Shown: piece after piece, positions 13,972 to 59,874 of the stretch
Numbering within the stretch: the stretch's first letter is position 1
Layout: every line of letters starts with the position of its first letter
Assembly: GCA_038044985.1 (NCBI GenBank)
Contig: JBBSYY010000012.1
Location: 5,973 to 69,972, forward strand
DNA from: Nanobdellota archaeon
Lineage (GTDB): Archaea; Nanobdellota; Nanobdellia; Pacearchaeales; GW2011-AR1
Length of the DNA stretch: 64,000 nt
Reading direction: 5' to 3'
Made by a program: the position numbers and the translations under genes
Notes under the pieces: generated by a model
What the model was told of the DNA's origin: nothing
The model's input: only the letters and a program-made list of their open reading frames with translations
Database searches by the model: none

Positions 13972-15336
13972 CTAAACCCCCATCATTTTTTTCATGGCAG
14001 GATTCATGTCAAGAGCATGTTGTTGTGCTATGTTCTGGTAGAACTGAAAGGTAATCATAATTCCTAATAATAAAGCTGTTCCTCCAACCAAAGCTCCTAA
14101 AACATCTGCAAGAGCAGCAAGCAATCCAATAGCAAGTCCTCCCATAATAGTTAAAGGTGTAACATATCTTGATAAAATTGATTCTAAAATTCTTTGGTCT
14201 TTTCTAAACCCGGGAATTTGTAGTCCTGATTTTAAAATATTATTTGCTTGTGCAGAAGCGTCCATTCCAGCAGTTTTAACCCAAAATACTGAGAATAATG
14301 CCGCAAAAAACATATAGAAAGCAATATGCCCAAAAGTCTGCCATAATAGATTAATTTCCCAACTTCCAGTAATTATTCTTCCAACTATATCTGTTGAACT
14401 TATCCAAAATAAAAAACCGCTTACAGGCTGTCCATTAACAACACTTCCCAAAAAAGTCGGTCTTCCAAGCCAATTTTGTAGCAAACCACCAAATAATTGA
14501 ATGTTAGCAATTAAAGCACCTGTTAAGATTATAGGAATTACCGATGCATAAAAAAACTGCAGGGGCCACTTAAGACTATATCCTCTTAATCTGTCATAAC
14601 TTAAAGGAATCTCAATTTTCAAACTTTGAGCCCAGACAACAACTAAAAACAAAATAATAGTTACAGCAATTGCAGAAAAAGCTAGCATTGCTCCTTGACT
14701 ATCTGCATTCATTAAACTAACTATCAAAGCTATAACTTTTCCAGAAGGTTGGAAATTACCTTCAGGACCTAAAAAACCAAAACTAGCTGCAATTAACTGC
14801 CAACCAACTCCTGCTGCGATAAATAAGCTAACTCCTGATCCAAATCCCCATTTTTGACAGACTTCATCCATAAACAAAATAGCTAGTCCTCCTAAAACTA
14901 ACTGAAAAATAACTATATAAGTAAAACCAGGAGCAGCCCTAATTCCTCCCATTGAAACATAAATAATAGATTCAAATAATATAAAGAAAAAAACTAGTAA
15001 TTTCTGTAATCCTTGAAAAAATCTTTTTCCTTCTACACTAGAAAGATCAATATTAAGAATCTGGCTTCCAACTAATAATTGCAAAATAATACTAGCCATA
15101 ACAATAGGTCCAATTCCAAGCGAGATAATTGATCCAAAACTTGCTCCAAGAATTACTGCAAAAAATTTAAACTGTTCTAAAAATCCCGGGTCTGCTCCAT
15201 AAAGAAAAATATTAGACATAAGAAAAAATGCGGCTAAAATAATAAGAGTCCATTTTAGCTTAGTATTAAAACTTAGTTTCTTTTCAATTGGCCCTTTTAC
15301 TTCAGGAAGATTTTTTAAAATATTTTTAAATTCCAT
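13972..15336 (-). CDS. secY: Preprotein translocase subunit SecY
   Basis: 10-TM SecY/Sec61alpha pattern at the canonical position after rpl15. Confidence 0.92.
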   Translation of the reverse strand: MEFKNILKNLPEVKGPIEKKLSFNTKLKWTLIILAAFFLMSNIFLYGADPGFLEQFKFFAVILGASFGSIISLGIGPIVMASIILQLLVGSQILNIDLSSVEGKRFFQGLQKLLVFFFILFESIIYVSMGGIRAAPGFTYIVIFQLVLGGLAILFMDEVCQKWGFGSGVSLFIAAGVGWQLIAASFGFLGPEGNFQPSGKVIALIVSLMNADSQGAMLAFSAIAVTIILFLVVVWAQSLKIEIPLSYDRLRGYSLKWPLQFFYASVIPIILTGALIANIQLFGGLLQNWLGRPTFLGSVVNGQPVSGFLFWISSTDIVGRIITGSWEINLLWQTFGHIAFYMFFAALFSVFWVKTAGMDASAQANNILKSGLQIPGFRKDQRILESILSRYVTPLTIMGGLAIGLLAALADVLGALVGGTALLLGIMITFQFYQNIAQQHALDMNPAMKKMMGV

Positions 15337-15423
15337 TTTTATTTTTCAATTATTTCCGTCTTTTGCTATACATTAAAAGCCTTCACTTTTAACTACTTAT
15401 TTAAATTATTTAATATTTAATTC

Positions 15424-15876
15424 TTATTTACTAATAGTTTTGCTGGTTTTCCTTAAAATCTCGACTTCTCCGCCAATTTTTTTAATCTTTTCTCTAGCCC
15501 TCTCACTGACATCTAAAACTCTTATTTTAATTTTTTTGTTTATTTCTCCATCTCCTAAAACTTTATATTCTTTTAAATCCAGCCAACCATCTTTCTCAAA
15601 TTTTTTTAAAGAATCAAAATTTTTTTCAATGTCTCTTAAATTAATCACTTTATTTTTTTTCTTAAATGTACTCTTGCTTGTTATTCCCTGTTTTCCAAAA
15701 TACTTATTTCCATAAAGTTTTATAACCAAAGTTTTTTTTTGGTCAGCTCTTTTTCCTGTTCCTGCCATGCCCTTTCCGCCCTTATGTCCACTGCCCTTCC
15801 ATTTTTTTCTAGAACCATGTCCATGAGTACTTCCGCCTCTGAATCTTCTAGATCTTCTTTTTTTCTTAGTTTTCAT
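15424..15876 (-). CDS. rpl15: 50S ribosomal protein uL15
   Basis: Gly/Lys/Arg-rich N-terminus (RFRGGSTHGHGSRKKWKGSGHKGGKG); canonical position. Confidence 0.9.
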   Translation of the reverse strand: MKTKKKRRSRRFRGGSTHGHGSRKKWKGSGHKGGKGMAGTGKRADQKKTLVIKLYGNKYFGKQGITSKSTFKKKNKVINLRDIEKNFDSLKKFEKDGWLDLKEYKVLGDGEINKKIKIRVLDVSERAREKIKKIGGEVEILRKTSKTISK

Positions 15877-15954
15877 TTTTTATCTTGCTTCATTAAAAAA
15901 TGAAGATTAAAAATTTTTAATTTTTTTATTTTTATTACCATAATTTAGCTTCTT

Positions 15955-16200
15955 CTAATTTTTGTTTATATAGTTCATATTTATCGCCAGGATATATAAA
16001 ATCAAAACCTTTATTATATATCTCACACATTTTCCTATTAATAGCATCGATACAATATCTAAAACTCCAATCATCTTAAAATTTAAATCCTTTTTTATAG
16101 TTACTATTTCATTATTAGAAACACTAATTATTAGACTATCTAAAAGAAATATTTTACCCTCTGCTAAATCTTCAAATCTAAAGTTTATTTTTTTAACCAT
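15955..16200 (-). CDS. Operon-embedded orphan ORF O10, apparently frameshifted
   Basis: ATG at 16198-16200, with one base between it and the rpl30 stop codon. Shares the FEDLAEG motif with O5. The distal part reads as odd hydrophobic sequence, whereas the adjacent frame gives DDWSFRYCIDAINRKMCEIYNKGFDFIYPGDKYELYKQKLEEAKLW down to 15935. Confidence 0.5.
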   Translation of the reverse strand: MVKKINFRFEDLAEGKIFLLDSLIISVSNNEIVTIKKDLNFKMIGVLDIVSMLLIGKCVRYIIKVLILYILAINMNYINKN

Positions 16201-16201
16201 C

Positions 16202-16669
16202 TCACAACATCCTCTCAATAAGTTTATTTATATCTTTTCCGTTATTTCCCAATACCCCTTTAGGATAAACCAGTTTACTTTTTATTCCTTTTCTAGGAGG
16301 ATGAAGCCTAAAAAAAGGCTTTAATTCAAAATCAGAAAGTTTTTTTCCTTTGATTAGATTATCAGCAACCTCTTCGACATTAATTTTTATTTTATTTTTA
16401 TCGCCTTCGACAGATTTTGCCCTTTCTTTAATTAATTTAACTAGAATATTCTTATCAATCTCGCCATAAGCGATATAAAACTTTACCTTTTTCAACATTC
16501 CTTCATTATTTTTATTTCTAGTAATTAAGATACAAGCATATTTTCTTCTTAATCTCAATCTATCTAAAGTTCCAGCAATATCTTTTTTTACATCAACCAT
16601 TCCAGAAATTCTAATTACTGCTAATAACTTATTCTCTGAAAGTAATTTTTCTTTTTTTGTATCTGCCAT
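16202..16669 (-). CDS. rpl30: 50S ribosomal protein uL30
   Basis: LAVIRISGMVDVKKDIAGTLDRLRLRRK motif typical of archaeal L30/L7e. Confidence 0.9.
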   Translation of the reverse strand: MADTKKEKLLSENKLLAVIRISGMVDVKKDIAGTLDRLRLRRKYACILITRNKNNEGMLKKVKFYIAYGEIDKNILVKLIKERAKSVEGDKNKIKINVEEVADNLIKGKKLSDFELKPFFRLHPPRKGIKSKLVYPKGVLGNNGKDINKLIERML

Positions 16670-16886
16670 TTTTTTAGTAACGTAAGCCCCTATTTCTTGC
16701 TTGCTGTTGCTATCTTCTAGTTCTTTATTAATTATTTTTTGTTCTCAATTAGATTTTATTTTTTTTATTAATACCTGCTAACTCAACTTGAGAGCTATAG
16801 CTACTCATTACTCTATTATTTTCATTAAGTTTAATATTACTAATATCATCATTCATTTTTTCTATTTTTATTTTTTAGATATGGGA

Positions 16887-17186
16887 TTAAGCTAATTCAA
16901 TGCTTTCATCAGAAAATCCAAGTTTTACCAGAACTTTTTTAACGTTCACTGAATGTTTTCCTTGGAGTTCAATAGCATTTCTTTTAACTGTCCCGCCACA
17001 AGCTAGTTTGTGTTTAAGCTCTTTTGCCAGAGACTTCAAATCAACTCCCTGAAAACCTAAGATGACTGTTATAATTTTCCCAAATTTCTTGATTTCTGTT
17101 TTTATCTGTATTCGCTGTTCTGTTTTTGCAATTTCTTGGCAAACACAAGCTTGCAAAGGCAATCCACATTTAGGACATATACTCAT
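16887..17186 (-). CDS. Translation initiation factor aSUI1 (eIF1 homologue)
   Basis: N-terminal CPKCGLP..CVC zinc knuckle plus a SUI1 domain (KLACGGTVKRNAIELQG). Confidence 0.85.
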   Translation of the reverse strand: MSICPKCGLPLQACVCQEIAKTEQRIQIKTEIKKFGKIITVILGFQGVDLKSLAKELKHKLACGGTVKRNAIELQGKHSVNVKKVLVKLGFSDESIELA

Positions 17187-17414
17187 TTGTTTATTTTTTT
17201 GTTTTTATCCTCAATAGATTTATTTAATAGTTTTAACTTATTTAAAGATTTTTTTGATTTTAAATTTTTGTTGTGTTTCGTTTTGCGCTTTTTATTGAGC
17301 AAAATGAAATGCTCAAAAATCTTTCGATTTTGTTGTGCTTCATTTTACAATTCTAGCTTGCTTAAGGCTTTCAAAACCTTCATAAAATTTATTTTTGTTT
17401 AGTTTTATTTATGT

Positions 17415-17649
17415 CAAGATTCTAGAAAACCACGCACTTTAGTGCGTGGGAATCTTGAGCACCTCAAGAATTCTGACAATTGAATTCTTGATGGTCATCA
17501 GGAATTTTATTCCTGAGACAAGAAAATTTCTTACAAAGGAAATTTTCTGTACAGAAAATTCCAAACAACAAAAGGAATTTTCTTGCATCCAAAAGTCCTA
17601 AACAAACCTCGGCTTTTAAGCCGAGGTAAAACTCAAGGACTTTTTGATT
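17415..17649. other. Array of at least 7 consecutive perfect stem-loops inside the r-protein operon (between rpl29 and SUI1)
   Basis: Stems verified by hand. They are 17415-22/17450-57 (enclosing ccacgcac-ttta-gtgcgtgg), 17453-59/17463-69, 17465-73/17482-90, 17498-505/17509-16, 17521-30/17539-48, 17553-62/17574-83 and 17591-99/17636-44 (enclosing cctcggctt-tt-aagccgagg). Confidence 0.85.
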
Positions 17650-17822
17650 TTATTAAATGTTAGCAATCTTGCAATTGTTTTTTTTAATTCTCTAATTTTT
17701 GTTTTTCCACCTTTAGTCAACTTAACTCTTTCTCTGATTAATTCATTTTTTAATTCTTTAATTTTTTCTTTTATTTCATTTACAGCCATTTTTGAAATAT
17801 CTTTTGATTTTAATATTGCCAT
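17616..17822 (-). CDS. rpl29: 50S ribosomal protein uL29
   Basis: 68 aa with the helical L29 pattern (KELKNELIRERVKLTKGG). The stop codon (17616-17618) lies in the loop of the GC-rich hairpin. Confidence 0.85.
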   Translation of the reverse strand: MAILKSKDISKMAVNEIKEKIKELKNELIRERVKLTKGGKTKIRELKKTIARLLTFNKIKKSLSFTSA

Positions 17823-18006
17823 CTTGTTAAGTTTTGGTTTACTTAAAGATTCAGAAAATTTTTCATGTTAAAATTTTCTGCGCTCAAAAATCTTTTGATT
17901 TTTGTTGTTTTTAAAACCATCTATAAATTTTAGTTTTAGGTAATCAAAGATTTTTAATCTTTTAGTCTTTATCACCATATTTAATAATTTTTATTTAATA
18001 AATTTA

Positions 18007-18786
18007 TCATTCTTTTGATTTTATATCAATAATTTCTTGAGGAGCTTCTTTAATATCTTTTTCCATCGGCTTTTTTATATCCTTATTTTTCACTTTTTCT
18101 TTTTTCTCTTCAGTTTCTTTGATTTTTTCTTCAACTTTTTTTTCGGGTTTTTCTTTTTTTTCCTGAATGCTTTCTTTGATTTTTTCTTTTACCAATTCAT
18201 TAATCTCAATTTTATCATAAATTCTAGCCCATGGGGGCATAATAGCAACTTTCACTCCAATAACTCCGCTTTTTGTTAGTGCTGTTGATTGCGCTCTATC
18301 AACTTCTTTTCTTGAATCTCCAGCTTTCTTTAAATAACCTTCTGAAAATCTCCATGATTTAGCTCTATCACTAGGCAGTTTTCCGCTTAATCTTATTTCA
18401 CAACCTAAAACTCCGGCAGCCATTATTTCTTGCAATTTTTTATAAGCAATTACTTTAAACTTCAAATTACCAGTTCTTTCTAAAGCAAGTGCGATCTCAT
18501 CGGCAACTGTTTGTGCGTCAAACAAAGGATCTTTAATTTCTTTTATTTCAATGTGTGGGTTTTCTAGTTTAAATCTTTTTTTTAAAATTTCTGTTAAATC
18601 TTCAATTTTCCCTCCCCCCCTACCTATAACTAAACCAGGTTTACTAGTAGAAATAATTATTTTCTCTCCGACTGGCGTATACTCAATGTTCAATTTACTA
18701 ATTTTTCCTCTTCCTAGATCCCTTTTAATATATTCTTTAATTCCAAACTCTTCTTTCTTCAGTTTTATAAATTTTTGTTCTTCCAT
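18007..18786 (-). CDS. rps3: 30S ribosomal protein uS3 with a Lys/Glu-rich C-terminal tail
   Basis: KH domain (GLVIGRGGGKIEDL) plus S3 C-terminal domain, then about 60 aa of KE-rich tail. It is in a non-canonical position, after rps5. Confidence 0.9.
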   Translation of the reverse strand: MEEQKFIKLKKEEFGIKEYIKRDLGRGKISKLNIEYTPVGEKIIISTSKPGLVIGRGGGKIEDLTEILKKRFKLENPHIEIKEIKDPLFDAQTVADEIALALERTGNLKFKVIAYKKLQEIMAAGVLGCEIRLSGKLPSDRAKSWRFSEGYLKKAGDSRKEVDRAQSTALTKSGVIGVKVAIMPPWARIYDKIEINELVKEKIKESIQEKKEKPEKKVEEKIKETEEKKEKVKNKDIKKPMEKDIKEAPQEIIDIKSKE

Positions 18787-18788
18787 TT

Positions 18789-19214
18789 TTAATTAGGTTC
18801 CTCCCACATTCCATTTAATTGCAGCATTTTTAACAATTTTGGATATCTTGAGTCAGAAGATTTATATATATTATAACGAACAACTTTCCCAAAATCATTT
18901 AAAAATCCTAACGAGATAACACGATCTTCAAAAATTAGTTTTTCTTTTAAAATTCTATAAGCTATTATTTTATCATCAGCTATTTTAGTCAGAAATTCTT
19001 TAACACCATAGATTTCAGATACTTTATTCTGTAAGATAACCTCATAAAATTCTTTTTTATTTTCTTTAATAATTCCAGAATAAACCATTTGCTTACTTAT
19101 TGTTTCTAAAGTTACTAAACTTTTATGTTCAACTATTACTTTTTTTCCAATTAAATTTTCTAGTTCTTCATGAATTCTAGGTTTTTCATATATAATTGCT
19201 TTTTGCATTTTCAT
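18789..19214 (-). CDS. Operon-embedded orphan ORF O9 (141 aa)
   Basis: Starts at the base immediately after the rps5 stop and ends 2 nt before the rps3 start. I recognise no family. Confidence 0.65.
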   Translation of the reverse strand: MKMQKAIIYEKPRIHEELENLIGKKVIVEHKSLVTLETISKQMVYSGIIKENKKEFYEVILQNKVSEIYGVKEFLTKIADDKIIAYRILKEKLIFEDRVISLGFLNDFGKVVRYNIYKSSDSRYPKLLKMLQLNGMWEEPN

Positions 19215-19940
19215 TTACATCTCCATAGTCTTTTTTAAAGCATTAATACAAGCCTTTGCTAAATTTATAGTTGTTCTTTTCTGCCCATCTGTATAACTAT
19301 AAACATCTTTTATTCCAGATATTCTTAAAATTTTCTTTAGCTCATCTCCAATGACTAATCCTGTACCTTGCGGGGCTGGAATTAATTTAACCTTACAACT
19401 CCCACATTTTCCCTCAACAACAAATGGAACTGTATGCGATTCTCCACAATTACAATCAAAACTACCACAAGCCCTTTTAATTTTAATAAGATTAAGTTTA
19501 GCTTTTCTTAATGCTTTTGCGTTTGCTGGCAAAGTTTCTTTTGCTTTTCCATATCCAATACCAATATAACCATCGCTTCCTACAACAAGTGCACATGAGA
19601 AGGTTGGAACATTTCCTTCAGCAGTTTTTCTTTGAGTTTGTCTCCAAGCTCTTCTTTTTCCACCGCCAAATTTTCCTTTTGCCTGTCCGATATTAAGGAT
19701 TTCTGACTTTAGCCCCAATAATGAATCAACAATTTCTGGCTCTAATATTCTATATTTCAACACTTCATCAATTTCTTTAATTTTTCCTTCTTTCACAAGT
19801 TTGCCAAGTTTTGTTTTTGGATTCCACTCTTCTAATTTTTTAATTTTTTGTTCTATCGCTCTATCTTCTCTGATTTTTTTAAAGTCTCTAGTTTTCCAAG
19901 CTTCATTCATTTTTTTATTTAATCCAATTTGTTTTTTCAT
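19215..19940 (-). CDS. rps5: 30S ribosomal protein uS5
   Basis: S5 dsRBD and C-terminal domain motifs (VVGSDGYIGIGYGKAKE; APQGTGLV). Confidence 0.9.
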   Translation of the reverse strand: MKKQIGLNKKMNEAWKTRDFKKIREDRAIEQKIKKLEEWNPKTKLGKLVKEGKIKEIDEVLKYRILEPEIVDSLLGLKSEILNIGQAKGKFGGGKRRAWRQTQRKTAEGNVPTFSCALVVGSDGYIGIGYGKAKETLPANAKALRKAKLNLIKIKRACGSFDCNCGESHTVPFVVEGKCGSCKVKLIPAPQGTGLVIGDELKKILRISGIKDVYSYTDGQKRTTINLAKACINALKKTMEM

Positions 19941-19942
19941 TG

Positions 19943-20245
19943 TTATTTTAATACTTTATATTTATATTTATATTTATTTAAAAAATCTTTAATTAAATCA
20001 CTGTCTAAAGCAACAGTCCAATACTCTTTCACTGGTTTATTTGGAACCCCTATAACATAATAATTTTTTGTTTCAGATAAATTAGTAACATTAAACTTTT
20101 TAGCTATTTCATGGAAAACATCGATATCACTAACCTGTATCATTCTTTTATGTGGCCAAAATACTAATTTATCTTCATTTGATATTTTATCCTCTAAATA
20201 TTTTCTACATCTTTGTCCAGCTTCAGTTTTATCCATCATTACCAT
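19943..20245 (-). CDS. Operon-embedded orphan ORF O8 (100 aa)
   Basis: 1-nt gap after the rpl18 stop and 2-nt gap before the rps5 start. I recognise no family. Confidence 0.65.
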   Translation of the reverse strand: MVMMDKTEAGQRCRKYLEDKISNEDKLVFWPHKRMIQVSDIDVFHEIAKKFNVTNLSETKNYYVIGVPNKPVKEYWTVALDSDLIKDFLNKYKYKYKVLK

Positions 20246-20246
20246 T

Positions 20247-20726
20247 TTACTTTACCTTTTCAATTTCATTTTTAACTTTATTAAAAAAATCATATCTTTG
20301 AATTTTTTCATTGTCAGGGAAGACTTTTTCGTTACAAGGGATATTTAATCCAGCATCTCTAGCTCCTTTAACTATGGCATAAACTCTTGAACCCTTTGTA
20401 TTTGGAATTAATCCAGAATCTAAAATGGCTTTTTTAATTTTTACTTTTTTTCCTATTAATAATCCAGCTAAATAACTTGCTGATAATGACTTTAAACTTC
20501 CGATTTTCTCTTTGGGCCATCCAAATTTCAGAAGTTCTTTAGTAGTTATCGTTTTTAAAACTTTGTCTTGTGCATGTTCACTTTCAGCAATCTGCAAAAT
20601 TATATACTTATTAGTTTTCCTAACAACTAATCTAGGAGAATTAGATTTAAGCAAAATTAATCTTTTTCTATAATTCGTTTTGCTTTCCCTTCTTCGTCTT
20701 TTATGCAATCTTCTTGGATGTTTCAT
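20247..20726 (-). CDS. rpl18: 50S ribosomal protein uL18
   Basis: RRRRESKTNYRKRL N-terminus and PRLVVRKTNKYI motif. Confidence 0.9.
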   Translation of the reverse strand: MKHPRRLHKRRRRESKTNYRKRLILLKSNSPRLVVRKTNKYIILQIAESEHAQDKVLKTITTKELLKFGWPKEKIGSLKSLSASYLAGLLIGKKVKIKKAILDSGLIPNTKGSRVYAIVKGARDAGLNIPCNEKVFPDNEKIQRYDFFNKVKNEIEKVK

Positions 20727-20731
20727 TTTAT

Positions 20732-21238
20732 CTACTGCTTGCTTCCTCTTAATTTTTTACTAACTTTCTCTTTAGTCTTTTTTTCAAATTCTTTTTCAGT
20801 TTGATATATTGGTTTAACAAAATTATCTGCTATAATTCCAATGCCATTTAAATATTCTCTAAAATTAGACTTGCTTTTAAACTCTTTCATTTTTATTTTT
20901 TTTCTTAATCTGATATATAACTCTTTATTGACAACCCCAACATTTTTTAATTCAATTAAATATTTCCTTAATTTCCTAGTTATCTTTACATATTCTTTTT
21001 TTCTATCTTTAATCTTCATTTTAATTTTTCCAGCCCCTCTTTTAGTTTTTCTTCTTCTTACCTTTTTTCTTCCTTTAACTGGTTTAATTGTTATTATCTC
21101 TTCTTGATATAATGTTTTAATGTCTTGTCTTGTAATAGCTTCTTTTATCTCAGCCAAATTTGCTTGATTAAAGACGATTCTATTTTTTCCAACACCCAAA
21201 ACCCTTGCAGCAAGCATCTTTTTCTTATTGAGGTTCAT
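20732..21238 (-). CDS. rpl19e: 50S ribosomal protein eL19
   Basis: KKMLAARVLGVGKNRI start and a basic central region typical of L19e. Confidence 0.9.
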   Translation of the reverse strand: MNLNKKKMLAARVLGVGKNRIVFNQANLAEIKEAITRQDIKTLYQEEIITIKPVKGRKKVRRRKTKRGAGKIKMKIKDRKKEYVKITRKLRKYLIELKNVGVVNKELYIRLRKKIKMKEFKSKSNFREYLNGIGIIADNFVKPIYQTEKEFEKKTKEKVSKKLRGSKQ

Positions 21239-21518
21239 TTTTATCTTTTGATAAGTTTATTTCTTGAATTATTTTGGCGCTTGCTACCATTTTTTCTAAG
21301 TTAGTTTTACATAAATTAATTGATCTATCAATTCTTATTTTTTCTTCATTTGATAATGTTTTTTTTCTTTTATCTAATAACTGATTGCATTCTCTATATG
21401 TATCTTCATAAAGTAGCTGATTAATTCTTAAAGCTTCTTCATAATTATCTCTACGAACTGCTTCAAAGAGTTTTTTATAAGTTTGCTCAATTTCTTCTTT
21501 ATTCATAGTATTATTCAT
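21225..21518 (-). CDS. Operon-embedded orphan ORF O7 (97 aa, helical)
   Basis: Overlaps the rpl32e end by 8 nt (or starts at the internal Met at 21506) and the rpl19e start by 14 nt. I recognise no family. Confidence 0.6.
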   Translation of the reverse strand: MNNTMNKEEIEQTYKKLFEAVRRDNYEEALRINQLLYEDTYRECNQLLDKRKKTLSNEEKIRIDRSINLCKTNLEKMVASAKIIQEINLSKDKNEPQ

Positions 21519-22095
21519 TTTTTTCCTCCATCTCTTCCTTTTTAATTTCCTGTTTATTTAAATTTGATTCAGTTTTCTCTTCAATTTTCTCCTCTAGTTT
21601 TTGATCAGTTTTTTCTTTTAGTTCTTCTTCTTTCTTTTCTTCAACTATTTTTTCCTTAACTACCATTTTCTTTTCTTTTTCAATTTTTTCTTCTTTTGTT
21701 TTTTTCTTTTTTTTCTCTAGTCCGGCCAAAAATTTTTTTGGATTAAGATTTAATAAATAAACTTTATTATGCAATGCGTATTCAGAAATCTCTTTCTTTT
21801 TCTTGTCTCCTATATTAGCTATTATCCCGATGTTATTTTCTCTAATTTTTTTTAAATCCTTAATATTATAAATCATAAATGGAAATTTTTTTTGACCATT
21901 TTTTTTTATTAATCCTCTTTCTTCCTTACTGCTTTTAAACCCAACCTTGACTTTTCTAAGTTTTCCCTTCATATTTAATCTAATTTTATTGTCTCTGCCT
22001 CTGGGTTTTCTATAGACTACTTTTTTCTTTCTTCTTAATCCTAGTTTTGAGTATTTATGAGAATCAACTACTCTAAATATTGTCTTTTTTGACAT
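21511..22095 (-). CDS. rpl32e: 50S ribosomal protein eL32 with a Lys/Glu-rich C-terminal extension
   Basis: L32e core (YRKPRGRDNKIR...) followed by an about 70-aa KE-rich tail. It starts directly after the rpl6 stop. Confidence 0.88.
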   Translation of the reverse strand: MSKKTIFRVVDSHKYSKLGLRRKKKVVYRKPRGRDNKIRLNMKGKLRKVKVGFKSSKEERGLIKKNGQKKFPFMIYNIKDLKKIRENNIGIIANIGDKKKKEISEYALHNKVYLLNLNPKKFLAGLEKKKKKTKEEKIEKEKKMVVKEKIVEEKKEEELKEKTDQKLEEKIEEKTESNLNKQEIKKEEMEEKNE

Positions 22096-22833
22096 TTACA
22101 AATAAACCCTCCCAGGTTTTTCAATTATGAAAATTCCGTCTTGATATATTCTCCTATCTTTATTTCTTATTTTAGTTCCTTTTTCAATATTAGTTGCTAT
22201 CTGCCCGGCTTTTTCAATATCAAAACTTTTTAATTCTACAATGTCCTTATCTATCTTAATTTCAACCTCAGGAACCGATTTTATTATTCTATCTTTATTT
22301 TCCCCTAAAAAGTTTTTAACAATAATTTCATTATTTTCTTTGTTGTAGATGACATTCATTGGAAAATGAACATTTGCGATCTGTAGTTTGTAGATAAATC
22401 CCTTTATTAGTCCATTAATCATATTTTTAATATGGGCTGAAAATGTTCCAAAAAGCCTTTTTTCAATTCTTCTATCTCTTTCAGAACTTATAATTATCTT
22501 ATTTACTTCTATTTTAAAATTAATTAAATCGTTTAGCTTTCTTTTCAATTCTTTATCATTTTTCCTGATAATTAAAAAATTTTCTCTGATCTCAACAGAA
22601 ATTTCTTTTGGTATTTCAATTTCTTCATATAATTTTTTCTGATTATCTTTTTTTCTAACTTTACTAATCTTAACCGATTTCCTTTGAGAGCTAGAACCAC
22701 CATCGCTTTCATTTGATTTGATATTATCGATAGTTTTTTTATCTAATCTTTCTTTATTTTGGTAGCTATTCTGGTTTATTTCAGCTTTACTAACTTTTCT
22801 TTGTTTTAAACTACTAATATTTTCTTCGGCCAT
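22096..22833 (-). CDS. rpl6: 50S ribosomal protein uL6 with an about 65-aa N-terminal extension
   Basis: Duplicated L6 alpha/beta domain motifs (FGTFSAHIKNMINGL; VHFPMNV). The start lies 1 nt after the rps8 stop. Confidence 0.88.
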   Translation of the reverse strand: MAEENISSLKQRKVSKAEINQNSYQNKERLDKKTIDNIKSNESDGGSSSQRKSVKISKVRKKDNQKKLYEEIEIPKEISVEIRENFLIIRKNDKELKRKLNDLINFKIEVNKIIISSERDRRIEKRLFGTFSAHIKNMINGLIKGFIYKLQIANVHFPMNVIYNKENNEIIVKNFLGENKDRIIKSVPEVEIKIDKDIVELKSFDIEKAGQIATNIEKGTKIRNKDRRIYQDGIFIIEKPGRVYL

Positions 22834-22834
22834 T

Positions 22835-23206
22835 TCAATACATATATGCTATTAAACATCCTCCTAAATTTTGTTCTTCGGCTTCAATATGTTTAACTAT
22901 CCCCTTATTTGTGGAAACTATAATAAAACCAAAATTTTTTGCTGGCAAAAATCTTCTTACATAAAATTTTATTTTTTTAACAGAAACTGTATATCTTGGT
23001 TTAATTACTTTAATCATATTTAAGTCTATTATTCTAACCTTTAACTCACTATCTTGAATTTTATAATCTAAATATCCAGATTCTTTTGCAATATCTAATA
23101 TACTTCTAAGTAATTTTGAATGCTTTTTTATATTTATTTCTGTTTTTTTTGCTCTTTTAGCATTCATTATTTCATTCAATCCATCAGCTACAATGTCTTG
23201 ACCCAT
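22835..23206 (-). CDS. rps8: 30S ribosomal protein uS8
   Basis: DIVADGLNEIMNA start and a GGCLIAYMY-type C-terminus. Confidence 0.9.
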   Translation of the reverse strand: MGQDIVADGLNEIMNAKRAKKTEINIKKHSKLLRSILDIAKESGYLDYKIQDSELKVRIIDLNMIKVIKPRYTVSVKKIKFYVRRFLPAKNFGFIIVSTNKGIVKHIEAEEQNLGGCLIAYMY

Positions 23207-23207
23207 T

Positions 23208-23438
23208 TTAAGAATATTTTTTAAAGCCTAATTCTTCAGCAATTTCTCTAAAGCAGTGCCTGCATAAATTTAATCCGTAAGAATTGATCATCGCGCCAAA
23301 TCTTCCACATCTTTCACATTTTTTCCTAGCTATCCCAGCACCTCTTTCTTTTGGTTTATTATGTTTTAAATACTTAGCTCTAATTGCAGGCTTTCCAGCA
23401 AGCTGTTTCAACATCTTTCTCCAATCACTTGCGGTCAT
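23208..23438 (-). CDS. rps14: 30S ribosomal protein uS14 (zinc type) with an N-terminal extension
   Basis: CERCGR...CRHCFRE zinc-ribbon S14 core. Confidence 0.85.
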
Positions 23439-23755
23439 TTTATTTCCTCCAATAGTTTATGATAATCTTTAGAATTTCTTTTGTAAGCATTTACTTCAAA
23501 ACTGTAGCCGTCAAGTCCCATATATCTAAACTCTCCAACGAATTTATCACTGACATTTTTATCATTAAAAGTATAAACCATTGTGTTAATACAACGTCCT
23601 GATATAACATCAAATACAATTTCCTCAGTAATACAAAGGACAGAACCACTCTTATTAACTCTAAATCTATCTCCAACTTTTACATCATTATCAATTATCA
23701 ATTTATACATTTCGCCAAGTCTTACATCTCTAGTTATTTGTTCTAATACCATCAC
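23435..23755 (-). CDS. Operon-embedded orphan ORF O6 (106 aa)
   Basis: 4-nt overlaps with both the rpl5 stop and the rps14 start. I recognise no family. Confidence 0.7.
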
Positions 23756-24393
23756 ACAATCTCCACCCCAAAATTTTTACTTAAAAAACTTACAATTTCT
23801 TCTTGACTAACCAATTGTTTTTTTGGCAATTTTCCACGCTTAATTTTTTTAAATTTAACCCTTTTCCCTCTTCTTTTAAAAACAATTCTTACTTCAAAGC
23901 CCAAAATACCAATATCTCTTTCATAATCTAATCCAGGCACTTCAATATATTCTTTAATACCAAAACAAAATTGATTTTCAGTTATTTGCTGTCTTTTTAT
24001 TGTATTGTCGAAGGCAGAAAAAAACCTTTTTAATAGTCCATATATTTTATCTTTATCGCGAATTGTAACCTTACACCCACTCTGTTTTCCAGGGCTAATC
24101 CCAAATTCAGGCACTCTTTTTGTAGATTTTTTGATATAAACTTTTTTGTTGGTTATTTTTTTCAATAATTTTACAGATTTTTCTAGTTTATCGTCTATCC
24201 CTCCGCAATGTAGGACTAATTTTTCTATCTCAACATCTCTCATTTTATTTTGCATTTTATTTTCATTTCTTGGTTTTGATAATTTCTTACTATCAGTAGT
24301 TTGAACTTCTGTTGCTTTTTTAGCTAATTCTTTTACCATAATATTTTGTTTATTATCAACATCCAAAATTTTCTGATTCTGTATTAGTTCCAT
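23752..24393 (-). CDS. rpl5: 50S ribosomal protein uL5 (possible N-terminal extension; alternative start near MRDVEIEK)
   Basis: L5 core motifs (LVLHCGG; GFEVRIVFKRRG). Confidence 0.88.
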   Translation of the reverse strand: MELIQNQKILDVDNKQNIMVKELAKKATEVQTTDSKKLSKPRNENKMQNKMRDVEIEKLVLHCGGIDDKLEKSVKLLKKITNKKVYIKKSTKRVPEFGISPGKQSGCKVTIRDKDKIYGLLKRFFSAFDNTIKRQQITENQFCFGIKEYIEVPGLDYERDIGILGFEVRIVFKRRGKRVKFKKIKRGKLPKKQLVSQEEIVSFLSKNFGVEIV

Positions 24394-24437
24394 TTTAAAA
24401 TTTCAGTTTTGTTATAACTTTTTTAAAAAGCTTCATC

Positions 24438-25085
24438 TTAAATTTCCTCCATCGCAATTATATTTTTAACCCAAACATTTATCTTTTTGCCAATGTTAAT
24501 TTTTGCAAGTTTTTTACCGCCTCTTTCAATAATATCCTCAATTTTTCCTTTTTGACCTATATGCTTGCCTCTTATAATGAACCCTATTTTCCCAACTTCC
24601 ATTTTAATTACCTTTTCAATATTTCTATTATTAAAATTAAAAACGACAGAGTCTCCAACATTCGCTTTTTCTTTATAAATAACATTTCTTCCATCAATTA
24701 AGTTTAGCTGAATTTTATTTCCTTTAATTATTTTTTTTCCAGTAATTTTTATAGTCTTTTTATCAAAATTGTCAGAAATATTATCGAGCATGATTTTTTT
24801 ATGTTTAGACAAACCAACCCTATAATTTTTATCATTTAATAAAAGAACATCAAATAATCTAAGGGGATAATTTGTTTCTGTAATAACTTTTCCATTAATT
24901 TTAATTTTTTTTTCTTTTAGTAAATTTTTTAATTCTTTTTTAGTCCTAACTAGTCCTAAAACATCTCTTACTACTATTATCAATGGGATAGAATTTTTTT
25001 GGTCGTGCGTACTTACAGCCAAATACTTTGTTCCTTTCCTTGGAACTGGCCAAAATTTTCCAATATTTTGTCTTTTAAGATGCAT
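24438..25085 (-). CDS. rps4e: 30S ribosomal protein eS4
   Basis: MHLKRQNIGKFWPVPRKGTKY start followed by S4 and KOW domains. Confidence 0.9.
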   Translation of the reverse strand: MHLKRQNIGKFWPVPRKGTKYLAVSTHDQKNSIPLIIVVRDVLGLVRTKKELKNLLKEKKIKINGKVITETNYPLRLFDVLLLNDKNYRVGLSKHKKIMLDNISDNFDKKTIKITGKKIIKGNKIQLNLIDGRNVIYKEKANVGDSVVFNFNNRNIEKVIKMEVGKIGFIIRGKHIGQKGKIEDIIERGGKKLAKINIGKKINVWVKNIIAMEEI

Positions 25086-25326
25086 ATTTTTTCTCCTGTT
25101 TTAATCTATCTAAAACTTTTTTCTCTAGAGCAAAAATTTTGATATCATCATCTTCTATTAAGTATCTTTGACCTTCTGCTAAATCTTCATACCTACTATA
25201 AAAATAACTGTCCTTGGATAATGGTATTTCATGATACTGATAAAACCCTTCTACAGATCCATAACTCTTTCTAATCTTTTTAGCAATAAATTTTAATGCT
25301 GTTTTTCTTAATTTTTTTATTAACAT
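25075..25326 (-). CDS. Operon-embedded orphan ORF O5 (83 aa)
   Basis: 9-nt gap after rpl24 and 11-nt overlap with the rps4e start. Carries a YEDLAEGQRYLIED motif shared with O10. Confidence 0.6.
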   Translation of the reverse strand: MLIKKLRKTALKFIAKKIRKSYGSVEGFYQYHEIPLSKDSYFYSRYEDLAEGQRYLIEDDDIKIFALEKKVLDRLKQEKKYAS

Positions 25327-25335
25327 TTTCTTACC

Positions 25336-25743
25336 TTATTTACTAATTGTTTTATCTCCTCCAGCTTTTCTTTCAAGGGACTCTTTTCTTTTTTTATCTT
25401 CTAAATTTAGTTCTTTAATTTGTAATTTTGATGGATCAAATTTAACTGCAATTTTTGTTCCATCTTTTTTGGTTCTATAAATTCCATCAATCGTTACTTT
25501 TAATTTTTTTAAATTAACTATATTCACTTTTCCTATTTTATCTTTAAACTCTCCCGCCAATACTTTAACTAAATCGTCCTTAACTACCGAAAAATTCCTC
25601 TTCCCATATTTTTTTCTCAGTTCTTTGCTTAAATTAACACTCATCATTTTTCTTCTAATATGCAAACTAGCATTATACCTATACTTTCTCTGCTTTCTAG
25701 GTTGTTTGCTTGCCTTCCAATGTTTTGAAAATTTTTTTTTCAT
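25336..25743 (-). CDS. rpl24: 50S ribosomal protein uL24
   Basis: KOW motif region (VVKDDLVKVLAGEFKDKIGKV) and a basic N-terminus. Confidence 0.9.
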   Translation of the reverse strand: MKKKFSKHWKASKQPRKQRKYRYNASLHIRRKMMSVNLSKELRKKYGKRNFSVVKDDLVKVLAGEFKDKIGKVNIVNLKKLKVTIDGIYRTKKDGTKIAVKFDPSKLQIKELNLEDKKRKESLERKAGGDKTISK

Positions 25744-25744
25744 C

Positions 25745-26119
25745 TTAAAAAGATTCCAACATTTTTACAGATTTAACAAGAAATTCTTTATATCTTTCTT
25801 TAGCTAAATCAAATAAAGATTGATAATAATCAGGAATTCCATTTTTTAAAAAAGAGGAGTTAAAATAAATAGAAGCAATTCTATCCAAACTTAATATGCC
25901 GTCAGCAAGGCTTTTTCCAACACGTTCAATGTCTCCTTGTTGAGCAAAAGCAGCTGATTCTATTGATGTAAAATTTATGAGACATAATTCTTCTAAATAA
26001 CTTCCCAGTCTTTTACTTATAAATTTCTGTTTAACTATATTGTTTATTCTGTTAGAATAATCTCTAAGATTATTTAATTCTCTTGTCATTAAATTATTAA
26101 TTTCATTATTCATTTTCAT
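25745..26119 (-). CDS. Operon-embedded orphan ORF O4 (124 aa, helical)
   Basis: 4-nt overlap with O3 and 1-nt gap before rpl24. A GAGGAAAG Shine-Dalgarno-like motif lies upstream of the ATG. Confidence 0.65.
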   Translation of the reverse strand: MKMNNEINNLMTRELNNLRDYSNRINNIVKQKFISKRLGSYLEELCLINFTSIESAAFAQQGDIERVGKSLADGILSLDRIASIYFNSSFLKNGIPDYYQSLFDLAKERYKEFLVKSVKMLESF

Positions 26120-26421
26120 GTTTTTCTTTCCTCAAAAATATTATCGCATTTATTTCTCAATTCAACATATTTTTCTGCATAAAGCCTTGGATTAAAAGAT
26201 AATCCCATTAAACCAGAACAATAATTCTTAAAAGCTTCATCGGTTTCTTCTACTTCCCAATAAGAAACTTTTCCTCTTCGTTCACTAAGATTTTGATCAT
26301 ATCCATCATCAACAACTATTGATGGGCTAACTATAGTTACTTCTTCATCATTGATATACACATCTAATGTTTTTATGCAAGATTCTATTTCTCTTATTAA
26401 TATTTTTTTTACGTCTTTCAT
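26116..26421 (-). CDS. Operon-embedded orphan ORF O3 (101 aa, acidic)
   Basis: 1-nt gap after the rpl14 stop and 4-nt overlap with the O4 start. Confidence 0.65.
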   Translation of the reverse strand: MKDVKKILIREIESCIKTLDVYINDEEVTIVSPSIVVDDGYDQNLSERRGKVSYWEVEETDEAFKNYCSGLMGLSFNPRLYAEKYVELRNKCDNIFEERKT

Positions 26422-26422
26422 T

Positions 26423-26824
26423 TTACATCACAAATTTAGCAATTTTACTTACAAATGGGTATCTGTCTGCGGCTTCTTTAGCAATTGGTCCTTTAATCTG
26501 CGTACCTTTTGTATTTCCTTTTTCGTCTTTTAATAAAACAACGGCATTGTTTGTAAAAGCAACTCTTTCTCCAGTTTTTCTTCTATATGACTTTTTCTGC
26601 CTTATTACAACTGCATCAAAAACCTCTCCAATCATTTCATGATTTCCTTTTCTTACAGATACTTTAACCCAATCACCAACTTTAGCATACTGCTGTCTAC
26701 CTCTTCTTGTTTTTCCACCTTTAACGCTAACTATTCTTACAACAGTTGCTCCACTGTTATCACTAGCTAAAACTAAACTTCCTAAATTCAATCCTCTAGT
26801 TATTTTTGCTGCAACGCCTTTCAT
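26423..26824 (-). CDS. rpl14: 50S ribosomal protein uL14
   Basis: L14 core runs from MKGVAAKITRGLNLGS onward. I chose the internal Met at 26824 because the longer ORF-track start (26887) would overlap rps17 by 53 nt. An AAGGAG motif lies upstream. Confidence 0.88.
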   Translation of the reverse strand: MKGVAAKITRGLNLGSLVLASDNSGATVVRIVSVKGGKTRRGRQQYAKVGDWVKVSVRKGNHEMIGEVFDAVVIRQKKSYRRKTGERVAFTNNAVVLLKDEKGNTKGTQIKGPIAKEAADRYPFVSKIAKFVM

Positions 26825-34176: not shown

Positions 34177-34245
34177 ATCAAAAATTTCTTGTGTTTTTGA
34201 TAGAAATTTTTAAGACAGAAAAAATTAGATTTTTCTGTATTAATG
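34177..34245. repeat. Double-hairpin intergenic repeat, copy A
   Basis: The sequence atcaaaaatttcttgt...gaaattttt..gacagaaaaaa...ttttctgtattaat is closely similar to 59569-59630. Stems are 34181-89/34202-10 and 34215-22/34231-38. Confidence 0.75.
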
Positions 34246-40035: not shown

Positions 40036-40088
40036 CAGAAAATCTTTTAAAAGATTTTCTGTGCCATAAAATCCAAAAGATTTTTTGG
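40036..40088. terminator. Hairpin pair between convergent genes (candidate bidirectional terminator)
   Basis: Perfect 13-bp palindrome cagaaaatcttttaaaagattttctg (40036-40061), then ccaaaa-gatt-ttttgg (40073-40088), with T-tracts on both sides. Confidence 0.35.
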
Positions 40089-57567: not shown

Positions 57568-57639
57568 TGAGCCTGCGAGGATTCGAACCTCGATCCTTCG
57601 GGCCGAAACCGAAGATTCTATCCATTGAACTACAGGCTC
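57568..57639 (-). tRNA. tRNA-Arg (anticodon UCG)
   Basis: Hand-folded cloverleaf: GAGCCTG-TA-GTTC-AATGGATA-GAAT-C-TTCGG-TTTCGGC-CCGAA-GGAT-CGAGG-TTCGAAT-CCTCG-CAGGCTC-A. It has a perfect 7-bp acceptor stem and 5-bp T stem, no encoded CCA, and a T-tract downstream. Confidence 0.85.
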
Positions 57640-59568: not shown

Positions 59569-59630
59569 ATCAAAAATTTCTTGTTGAAATTTTTGGGACA
59601 GAAAAAAGTTTACTTTTTTCTGTATTAATT
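59569..59630. repeat. Double-hairpin intergenic repeat, copy B
   Basis: Sequence atcaaaaatttcttgttgaaatttttgggacagaaaaaagtttacttttttctgtattaatt. Stems are 59571-80/59586-95 and 59598-609/59612-23. It is near-identical in its arms to copy A. Confidence 0.75.
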
Positions 59631-59874
59631 TTTAGTTGGTTTAAACTTAAATCCTTATATTAATTAAAAGAGCAGGCTTTTTATAAAGATTTGGTGTCAG
59701 TTAATTAAAACTAATATATCTCTAGTTATGGTGCTATTAAATCCGCTGGCGATGAAACCCTGGTCTGCTATTAATTTTCCCTCAATAAGCTCCAGATTAT
59801 AATAATCTCATTAACTAATAACTAACCAATCTCGTCTATGAAATAACATTTTAATCTGTTGCCTCAATAACTAG

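Follow-up and report, generated by a model that had tools for sequence, protein, structure and literature searches.

This study analyzed a 64-kb stretch of DNA (hereafter the window, taken at its full length) from a tiny groundwater DPANN archaeon of the Pacearchaeota/Woesearchaeota group and, within it, an array of perfect hairpins located at the 3′ end of the ribosomal protein gene rpl29. The window has a G+C content of 27.7%, and its minus-strand ribosomal operon carries the genes in the order L19e, L18, orf100, S5, orf141, S3, L29, SUI1, L30, L15, and SecY. The hairpin array extends from the 3′ end of rpl29 through the first half of the 429-nt spacer that precedes SUI1 (Table 1). Sequence comparisons with related genomes and metagenomes, whose loci and contigs are labeled L001-L074, made it very probable that the array is a recent insertion of a mobile repeat present in several copies, and not a conserved RNA of the operon.

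Table 1. Positions of the inserted element, its parts, and the adjoining features in the window.
Feature	Position	Strand	Basis or remark
Complete non-autonomous element GTCAAGATTC...GGACTTTTTGAT, 236 bp	17413..17648	+ (taken as "top")	Copy alignment and empty site in L025
TTAT flank directly 5′ of the element	17409..17412	+	Candidate target or left cleavage motif (resembling a target-adjacent motif)
Left-end module: outer AT-rich stem 17415-22/17450-57 around GC hairpin CCACGCAC-TTTA-GTGCGTGG (17430-17449)	17415..17457	+	Same GC hairpin in all copies
Two internal hairpins: TCAAGAATTC/GAATTCTTGA (17464-17491; arms 17464-73/17482-91) and TCAGGAAT/ATTCCTGA (17498-17516)	17463..17516	+	Inverted repeats, copy alignment
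Core double hairpin ACAAGAAAATTTC..GAAATTTTCT-GTAC-AGAAAATTCC..GGAATTTTCTTG (arms 17521-30/17539-48 and 17553-62/17574-83)	17518..17585	+	Motif in 38 metagenome stretches and L007; covariation
Right-end module: outer stem 17587-99/17636-48 around GC hairpin ACCTCGGCTT-TT-AAGCCGAGGT (17606-17627)	17587..17648	+	Ends ...TTGAT, candidate right cleavage motif
rpl29 (68 aa)	17616..17822	-	Pfam Ribosomal_L29, E = 1.3e-9
SUI1/aIF1 gene, normally abutting rpl29	16887..17186	-	Pfam SUI1, E = 1.5e-18
S3	18007-18786	-	Ribosomal-protein operon
Remaining rpl29-SUI1 spacer	17187..17412	-	Second, unrelated expansion of ~110 nt versus L025, with its own hairpin (17301-17346); alignment and blastn blocks
Solo hairpin of the CAGAAAA...TTTTCTG class, S3-rpl29 spacer	17852..17880	+	Pattern match

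All of the hairpins listed in an initial annotation of this DNA were present, and every listed arm pair was a perfect Watson-Crick inverted repeat. The annotation had placed the array immediately after the rpl29 stop codon; this is not quite the case, as the final 33 nt of the array (17616-17648) are the last 10 codons and the stop codon of rpl29. The stop codon itself (TAA on the minus strand, 17616-17618) does lie in the second GC hairpin, in which it takes up the last stem base and two loop bases. When both strands were folded, as the annotation had proposed, a 261-nt stretch reached energies of -98.8 kcal/mol (minus strand) and -101 kcal/mol (plus strand) versus shuffle means of -50 and -47; the z-scores against dinucleotide shuffles were -10.9 and -13.4, respectively, and 0 of 200 shuffles folded as well. 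The two strands fold equally because every pair is Watson-Crick. Counting stems of at least 8 bp with at least two GC pairs, we found seven hairpins in 200 nt of the array, versus a background of 0.31 per kb in the window and 0-1.1 per kb in approximately 250 kb of related loci. The hairpin array is thus far beyond chance. The arms of the interior AT-rich hairpins are variants of CA(A)GRAWTYC, and in the consensus of the family described below, the arms of the left module's outer stem are identical to those of the following hairpin.

The relatives compared were 20 species-level Pacearchaeota/Woesearchaeota genomes that have the unusual gene order S5-S3-L29-SUI1-L30. The distance between rpl29 and SUI1 ranged from -32 to +7 nt in 19 of these genomes and was 65 nt in the remaining one, whereas it is 429 nt in the window. 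The nearest relative, L025, originates from the same aquifer, has a DNA identity of 88-98% in the flanking genes (blastn), and carries a 68-nt spacer without hairpins. Another relative, L028, has an unrelated AT-rich spacer of 319 nt. Because the spacers are short in 19 of the 20 relatives and L025 lacks the hairpins, we concluded that the array is not ancestral at this site; conservation in the homologous spacers of relatives, for which the initial annotation had proposed to look, was not found.

The comparison with L025 also provided an empty site. In the plus-strand sense of the window, the reverse complement of L025 reads ...TTTGTTTAGTTTGGTTTTATTCAT/TTTATTAAACG, with TCAT/TTTATTAAA at the junction, and the filled site reads ...TTTGTTTAG, an alignment gap of five columns, TTTTATTTAT/17413-17648 (236 bp)/TTTATTAAATG. 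Both flanks are colinear at single-base precision, and zero bases are duplicated or lost. Judged by this alignment, the 236 bp at 17413-17648 were inserted precisely, immediately 3′ of a TTAT within the final codons of rpl29, and the insertion postdates the split from the nearest sequenced relative. The L29 protein ends in ...TFNKIKKSLSFTSA in the window and in ...TFNKMNKTKLNKHAINL in L025, each directly before the stop; codons 59-68 and the stop codon (17616-17648) are therefore element sequence. The assembly GCA_964360005.1 and Hainich groundwater assemblies were base for base the same as the window over the 1.9-3 kb compared around rpl29, and L022-L024, which have the same rpl29, were identical to the window, with no population variation among these.

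Further copies of the element were sought through a metagenome scan for its central double hairpin, which returned 38 stretches. Six of these hold the whole array at 79-92% identity, five of them with a length of exactly 237 bp, and a profile of the copies (nhmmer) matched window positions 17414-17648 with an E value of 9e-77. All six further copies are intergenic and flank archaeal housekeeping genes, namely those encoding aEF-1alpha, a DnaG-like Toprim protein, GlyRS, a tRNase Z-like protein, and saccharopine dehydrogenase. Three of these copies, all located around GlyRS, belong to the genome of the window itself; GlyRS lies on contig CAYHUQ010000038 of GCA_964360005.1 (L068), and this contig stops at a repeat copy on both ends. 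The short-read GlyRS contigs L068, L069, and L070 likewise end at or just short of element copies, which indicates that the repeat fragments the assemblies of this genome. One copy (L035) has a deletion of the segment that corresponds to the two internal hairpins. A blastn-short search with the spacer detected no second full copy in the window, only a 21-nt motif that recurs at 17882, and no further copies were present in the 14 kb beyond the window ends (L072 and L074). This motif, GC(G)CTCAAAAATCTTT(C/T)GATTTT(T)GTTG, was observed with a length of 21-27 nt and an identity of 95-96% at three intergenic sites (window 17311-17337 and 17882-17908, and L035:8290-8315). The fallback suggestion of the initial annotation, stacked palindromic mobile repeats, was therefore borne out by a multicopy 236-237-bp element whose units derive from dispersed palindrome families; the copy number was in the tens and not the hundreds that the annotation had named as a refuting condition, and that the repeat is junk is not shown.

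The copies share their boundaries. TTAT directly precedes GTC... in all seven full copies and in a diverged homologue, L061, which retains the termini and the architecture but differs in its stem sequences. The shared junctions are TTAT/GTCAAG... on the left and ...TTTTTTGAT/ on the right, and L061 also ends in ...TTGAT/. Apart from these junctions, the sequences around the copies are AT-rich and unrelated, and the seven copies are not consistently bordered by a direct repeat. The left end, GTCAAGAATTCTCAA, bears no relation to the reverse-complemented right end, ATCAAAAAATCCTTT, and hence there are no terminal inverted repeats. The element has no coding capacity. Near each end lies a GC hairpin, the left one starting 17-18 nt from the left end and the right one ending 21-22 nt before the right end, and the two are in direct orientation. 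Their consensus sequences are near-identical (AAACC-ACGCAC-TTTA-GTGCGT-GG and AAACC-ATGCCC-TTTA-GGGCAT-GG), with the general form ACC-N5-C-TTTA-G-N5-GGT. The right-end hairpin occurs in three fully compensated versions: CCATGCCC-TTTA-GGGCATGG in the other copies, CCTCGGCTT-TT-AAGCCGAGG in the window, and CCGTGGAC/GTCCACGG in L061. Solo hairpins of the ACC...C-TWWA-G...GGT design were observed elsewhere in the same contigs.

We further analyzed the core double hairpin, ACAAGAAAAT...ATTTTCTGTACAGAAAAT...ATTTTCTTGTA, which the 38 stretches represent by 31 distinct sequences from contigs with a G+C content of 27-44% and from several environments. The conserved parts, [T]ACA-AGAAAAT ... ATTTTCT-GTAC-AGAAAAT ... 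ATTTTCT-TGTA, extend beyond what the search pattern demanded; the stem bases are ACA(A)GAAAAT/ATTTTCT(T)GT, joined by GTAC. Among 62 hairpins with 31 different inner arms, the mean number of extra Watson-Crick pairs was 3.2, versus 0.94 when the arms were swapped between hairpins. In a 27-sequence alignment, the structure in which arm 1 pairs with arm 2 and arm 3 with arm 4 had 95.8% of its cells paired, and 82 cells, versus 22 expected, had changed on both sides. The structure had a covariation score of 0.280 versus 0.070 for shuffles, and 0 of 500 shuffles scored as high. The alternative register (2:3 and 1:4) scored 0.091 versus 0.078, and 60 of 500 shuffles scored as high. The initial annotation had drawn attention to two sets of arms arranged X X′ X X′ that could pair in either register. 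Since one conserved sequence is common to all four arms, both registers can be drawn, but the covariation supports 1:2 with 3:4 only, and on this sequence evidence the 2:3 pairing is a mere by-product of the shared arm bases.

The strong covariation indicates that the hairpin structure is under selection, at least for the propagation of the element itself. G-U pairs were scarce (10 of 589 predicted pairs) and among the copies the loop sequence flips, reading either TTTA or TAAA, which suggests that palindromy is kept at the level of DNA rather than RNA. All 39 double-hairpin sites are intergenic; the flanking genes are in tandem at 15 loci, convergent at 6, and divergent at 1, and at least one gene 3′ end adjoins 21 of these 22 loci. 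Hairpins of the CAGAAAA..TTTTCTG class had 5 matches in the window versus 0.13 expected. The double-hairpin pattern had 0 matches in the viral contigs of IMG/VR, and we therefore see no viral link.

Taken together, we hold with moderate confidence that the array is best explained as a gene-less transposable element composed of palindromes similar to repetitive extragenic palindromes (REPs), which inserted in rpl29 and probably moved as single-stranded DNA. For the single-strand HUH mechanism specifically, which is proposed by analogy, we regard the chances as evenly balanced. In this mechanism, the element would move along the "peel and paste" route of the IS200/IS605 family and its gene-less derivatives, the palindrome-associated transposable elements (PATEs) and REP/REPIN sequences. 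An HUH tyrosine transposase encoded elsewhere would act in trans, recognize the folded subterminal hairpins, and cut at TTAT/ on the left and ...TGAT/ on the right. The IS608 transposase binds hairpins near the element ends on a single strand, and insertion takes place 3′ of a tetranucleotide outside the element, with no DNA gained or lost; the left cut is 19 nt away from the foot of the hairpin, and the cleavage sites are read by the four bases that precede each foot on its 5′ side (PMC3201880). Gene-less PATE derivatives that are mobilized in trans exist (PMC10055086). In the present element, TTAT and TGAT differ by a T-to-G change, which is paralleled by an A-to-C change in the bases just 5′ of the hairpin feet (AAAA on the left, ACAA/CAAA on the right). 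Such a matched change would be expected if guide bases pair with the cleavage site, with AAAA as the putative partner of TTAT and (A)CAA(A) as that of TGAT, a small point in favor.

Several observations weigh against this explanation. The insertion comparison relies on a single precise empty site. A second one was sought through GlyRS homologues (L071), in which the genes were syntenic, but the junction could not be placed because the spacers were too diverged. A tblastn search of 488 kb with an IS200 TnpA probe gave no match, and a Pfam scan of approximately 40 open reading frames (ORFs) from the window and the comparison loci detected neither Y1_Tnp nor TnpB; the neighbors of the hairpins and copies were housekeeping genes only. 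The hairpins are perfect Watson-Crick helices of 8-10 bp, unlike the ends of IS608. Of the 12 genes next to copies, 10 are antisense to the putative top strand, which, if these genes run with replication, is opposite to the outcome of insertion into the lagging-strand template. Finally, the core double hairpin was also found without the end modules, even directly upstream of start codons, and the core may therefore have a host function of its own.

The initial annotation had favored a structured RNA of the operon, and a cis-regulatory role (an attenuator, a riboswitch-like switch, a processing site, or a translational device for SUI1) would fit the very stable predicted folding, the arms that can pair in two registers, and the stop codon in a hairpin loop. 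We consider this reading, together with the small RNA also suggested, highly improbable because the array is missing at the orthologous site in L025 and in 19 of 20 other relatives, the same array lies beside unrelated genes, and the 2:3 pairing lacks covariation. Rfam gave no match to the array: over the whole window at the gathering threshold the sole match was tRNA-Arg, and over 17100-18050 at E values up to 10 only noise appeared, the best scores being 14-27 bits versus thresholds of 42-106. ARAGORN likewise found tRNA-Arg as the only tRNA of the window, distant at 57568-57639, and none at the rpl29-SUI1 spacer. A related reading retains mobility and adds an RNA product: the element would be a PATE that encodes a guide RNA, with the internal hairpins as the scaffold of an omega-RNA-like transcript leaving the right end, a TnpB-type nuclease acting in trans, and TTAT as the target-adjacent motif. 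PATEs of the IS200/IS605 family "often encode omega RNAs" (PMC10055086), the approximately 240 nt of stacked stem-loops end exactly at the right boundary, and the sequence of the core double hairpin is kept in many genomes; however, TnpB was not seen among the ORFs scanned, the few G-U pairs and the loop flips favor selection on DNA over RNA, and the double hairpin also occurs in 5′ leaders without the element ends. We judge this reading very unlikely. Only slightly better are the prospects of a classical miniature inverted-repeat transposable element (MITE), moved by a DDE transposase that recognizes terminal inverted repeats and makes target-site duplications. The element is short, gene-less, multicopy, intergenic, and AT-rich and prefers AT-rich targets, and a high density of MITEs has been reported for at least one Woesearchaeal genome (PMC11602168). 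However, its ends, GTCAAGAATTC... and ...GGATTTTTTGAT, are not inverted repeats, the seven copies are without a consistent flanking direct repeat, and the empty site of L025 reveals no duplication.

A further possibility, which we regard as unlikely but as better placed than the three above, is compatible with a single-stranded transposon origin: the element may be mobile in origin and now be used by the host, with its GC hairpins and U-rich tracts ending or protecting the S3-rpl29 transcript and with SUI1-L30-L15-SecY transcribed from a promoter of their own in the spacer. The mRNA of the operon carries the complement of the element, in which the GC hairpins are followed by UUUGUUU and UUUUCU, and these two sites are the only strong combinations of a GC hairpin and a T tract in 64 kb, both on the sense strand of the operon. 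The genes adjoining copies are transcribed such that the same element orientation appears in the RNA in the 10 of 12 cases noted above, and the preference of double-hairpin loci for gene 3′ ends points in the same direction, as do the L010 and L011 lineages, which independently have hairpin pairs at the rpl29 3′ end. The motif TTAAATAAAT at 17218-17227, approximately 30 nt upstream of the SUI1 ATG, is TATA-box-like and kept in L025, and by inference from its sequence it could be the SUI1 promoter. Against host use, oligo-U alone is enough for archaeal termination and a hairpin is unneeded, and the other gene ends in the window do without such hairpins. In addition, a solo GC hairpin beside GlyRS is in the opposite orientation, and the nearest relative manages without the element.

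Other candidate identities were rejected. A C/D-box small RNA was considered for UGAUGA at 17492-17497, which overlaps a hairpin arm and has no matching D box. No boxes resembling origin recognition boxes were present for a replication origin, and the site lies within an operon; an integron attC site was dismissed for want of GTTRRRY boxes. De novo origin through local template switching was excluded as the source of the array because identical copies exist elsewhere, although the loop flips indicate that such processes do act on the array.

Compared with known systems, the element would appear to work most like an IS200/IS605-derived PATE, and its units resemble REP and bacterial interspersed mosaic element (BIME) palindromes. 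With the IS200/IS605 family and PATEs (IS608, ISGst PATE-like), it shares subterminal hairpins at both ends in direct orientation without terminal inverted repeats, insertion directly 3′ of a fixed outside tetranucleotide without target duplication, a right end in a related tetranucleotide (TGAT vs TTAT), and a gene-less, multicopy nature. The foot of the left hairpin is 17-18 nt from the cut, similar to the 19 nt of IS608; by contrast, the right hairpin is 22 nt from the end rather than 10 nt, and the stems are perfect, whereas the ends of IS608 are imperfect palindromes with an extrahelical base (PMC3201880). The element also differs in its interior, which consists of other palindromic units and not of ORF remnants, in its DPANN host, and in that no TnpA or TnpB was found for it in the sequence searched (the 488 kb probed and the approximately 40 ORFs). 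Similar to REP, BIME, and REPIN sequences, which are mobilized by RAYT enzymes, the units are short extragenic palindromes with a conserved stem base, arranged singly, as doublets, or in mosaic clusters, located mostly beside gene 3′ ends, and over-represented in the genome; REP structures are recognized as single-stranded DNA by an HUH enzyme. The tag here is ACA...TGT with a GTAC joint and not GTAG or CGTC, and the inner stems vary with compensation (31 arm variants), whereas REP populations are near-identical. No RAYT gene was found in the window and the comparison loci, and a survey of REPs assigns GTAG repeats exclusively to bacterial phyla and the PVC group (PMC3733652). Classical prokaryotic MITEs are likewise small, non-autonomous, and intergenic and cause assembly breaks, but the rpl29 element has neither terminal inverted repeats nor a target-site duplication. 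Intrinsic terminators resemble it in that T-rich tracts follow both GC hairpins on the transcribed strand; here, however, the hairpins are part of a mobile unit and are absent at the other gene ends of the window. Our literature search found no description of this element family, which appears to be undescribed in the literature searched, and a characterized element of this type seems to be lacking in the lineage.

By the alignment with L025, rpl29 gained 10 new C-terminal codons and a new stop codon, and the normally abutting rpl29 and SUI1 genes were uncoupled by the insertion and are now 429 nt apart; both are side effects and not design. A streamlined, probably symbiotic archaeal genome thus appears to tolerate proliferating hairpin transposons even within a core ribosomal operon, in which one insertion gave an essential ribosomal protein a different C-terminus and stop codon and parted two genes that adjoin or overlap in 19 of 20 relatives. 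For annotation and binning, such repeats matter because they break assemblies and inflate screens for "structured RNA". For mobile-element biology, the family offers a tractable case of TTAT-targeted insertion without target duplication. The binding partner of the conserved double hairpin, with its clean covariation, is a point worth following.

The double hairpin was also observed in a conserved leader of approximately 115 nt that stands directly before start codons on five contigs (L007:6945-7085, L032:472-612, L033:690-826, the same as L051, L039:1648-1786, and L067:82-222). The genes behind it differ and encode SecY, a Zn-ribbon protein, a membrane protein, and a pilin-like protein. The leader comprises, in order, an AT-rich TATA-like stretch, a TGAAAAT..ATTTTCA hairpin, ATTACA, the double hairpin, TGTAYTC, a covarying hairpin with the Shine-Dalgarno-like AAGAGGT in its loop, and ATG; it could be a portable promoter/5′-untranslated-region module. 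A different multi-hairpin composite that holds the same double-hairpin core recurs near-identically on several contigs of another organism with a G+C content of approximately 40% (L041, L046, L056, L058, L062, and L064), where its flanks are CCCGAGAAATGGG and CCCATTTCTGGG. We tentatively raise the possibility, which we rate below an even chance, that the ACAAGAAAAT...ATTTTCT-GTAC-AGAAAAT...ATTTTCTTGT double hairpin represents an undescribed REP-like class of DPANN archaea that is sequence-tagged and structure-selected. Such a class might be recognized by a dedicated single-strand DNA enzyme or a host factor and might spread both inside composite gene-less transposons and as part of the portable 5′ leader (TATA-like box, hairpin, double hairpin, and Shine-Dalgarno sequence in a hairpin loop) before diverse genes.

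Hairpins were also observed at other junctions of the ribosomal operon. In L010 (4875-4925) and L011 (5220-5275), hairpin pairs have arisen independently at the rpl29 3′ end; that of L010 lies inside a C-terminal extension of rpl29 of approximately 20 codons, and in L011 the stop codon is within a hairpin arm. The rpl29 3′ junction may be a hot spot for insertion, or hairpins may be favored there. Another Pacearchaeote contig (L050:511-768) has a double hairpin in the S3-rpl29 spacer, and such units thus appear repeatedly between ribosomal-operon genes, with the lineage and the junction differing from case to case. The S3-rpl29 spacer of the window is 184 nt versus 28 nt in L025; positions 17826-17983 hold the extra sequence of approximately 157 nt, with hairpins at 17852-17880 and 17885-17904, and its border is a degenerate copy of the rpl29 5′ end (17957-17983 vs 17799-17825). 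Within the SUI1 coding sequence, three relatives (L006:4985-5057, L007:5241-5313, and L010:5034-5106) have a conserved pair of 8-9-bp hairpins (TCCRAACY... and GTTTTCAAG...). Throughout the clade (window 14000-26500 and L001-L021), the S3-L29-SUI1 block stands between S5 and L30 and not upstream of S17/L14, and small unannotated ORFs are interleaved in the operon of the window (orf141 at 18789-19214, orf100 at 19943-20245, and a 97-aa ORF at 21225-21518).

Elsewhere in the window, positions 59629-59874 form a long intergenic stretch of locally higher G+C content (e.g., ggtgctattaaatccgctggcgatgaaaccctggtctgc) that had no Rfam match at E values up to 1. Intergenic hairpin pairs of one design, (C)AAAAATTTC..GAAATTTTT(G), ACAGAAAAA..TTTTTCTGT, and ATTAAT, were identified at 34177-34245 and 59570-59628 and constitute another small composite repeat. 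Between two convergent genes, a perfect 12-bp palindrome, CAGAAAATCTTT-TA-AAAGATTTTCTG, was found at 40036-40061.

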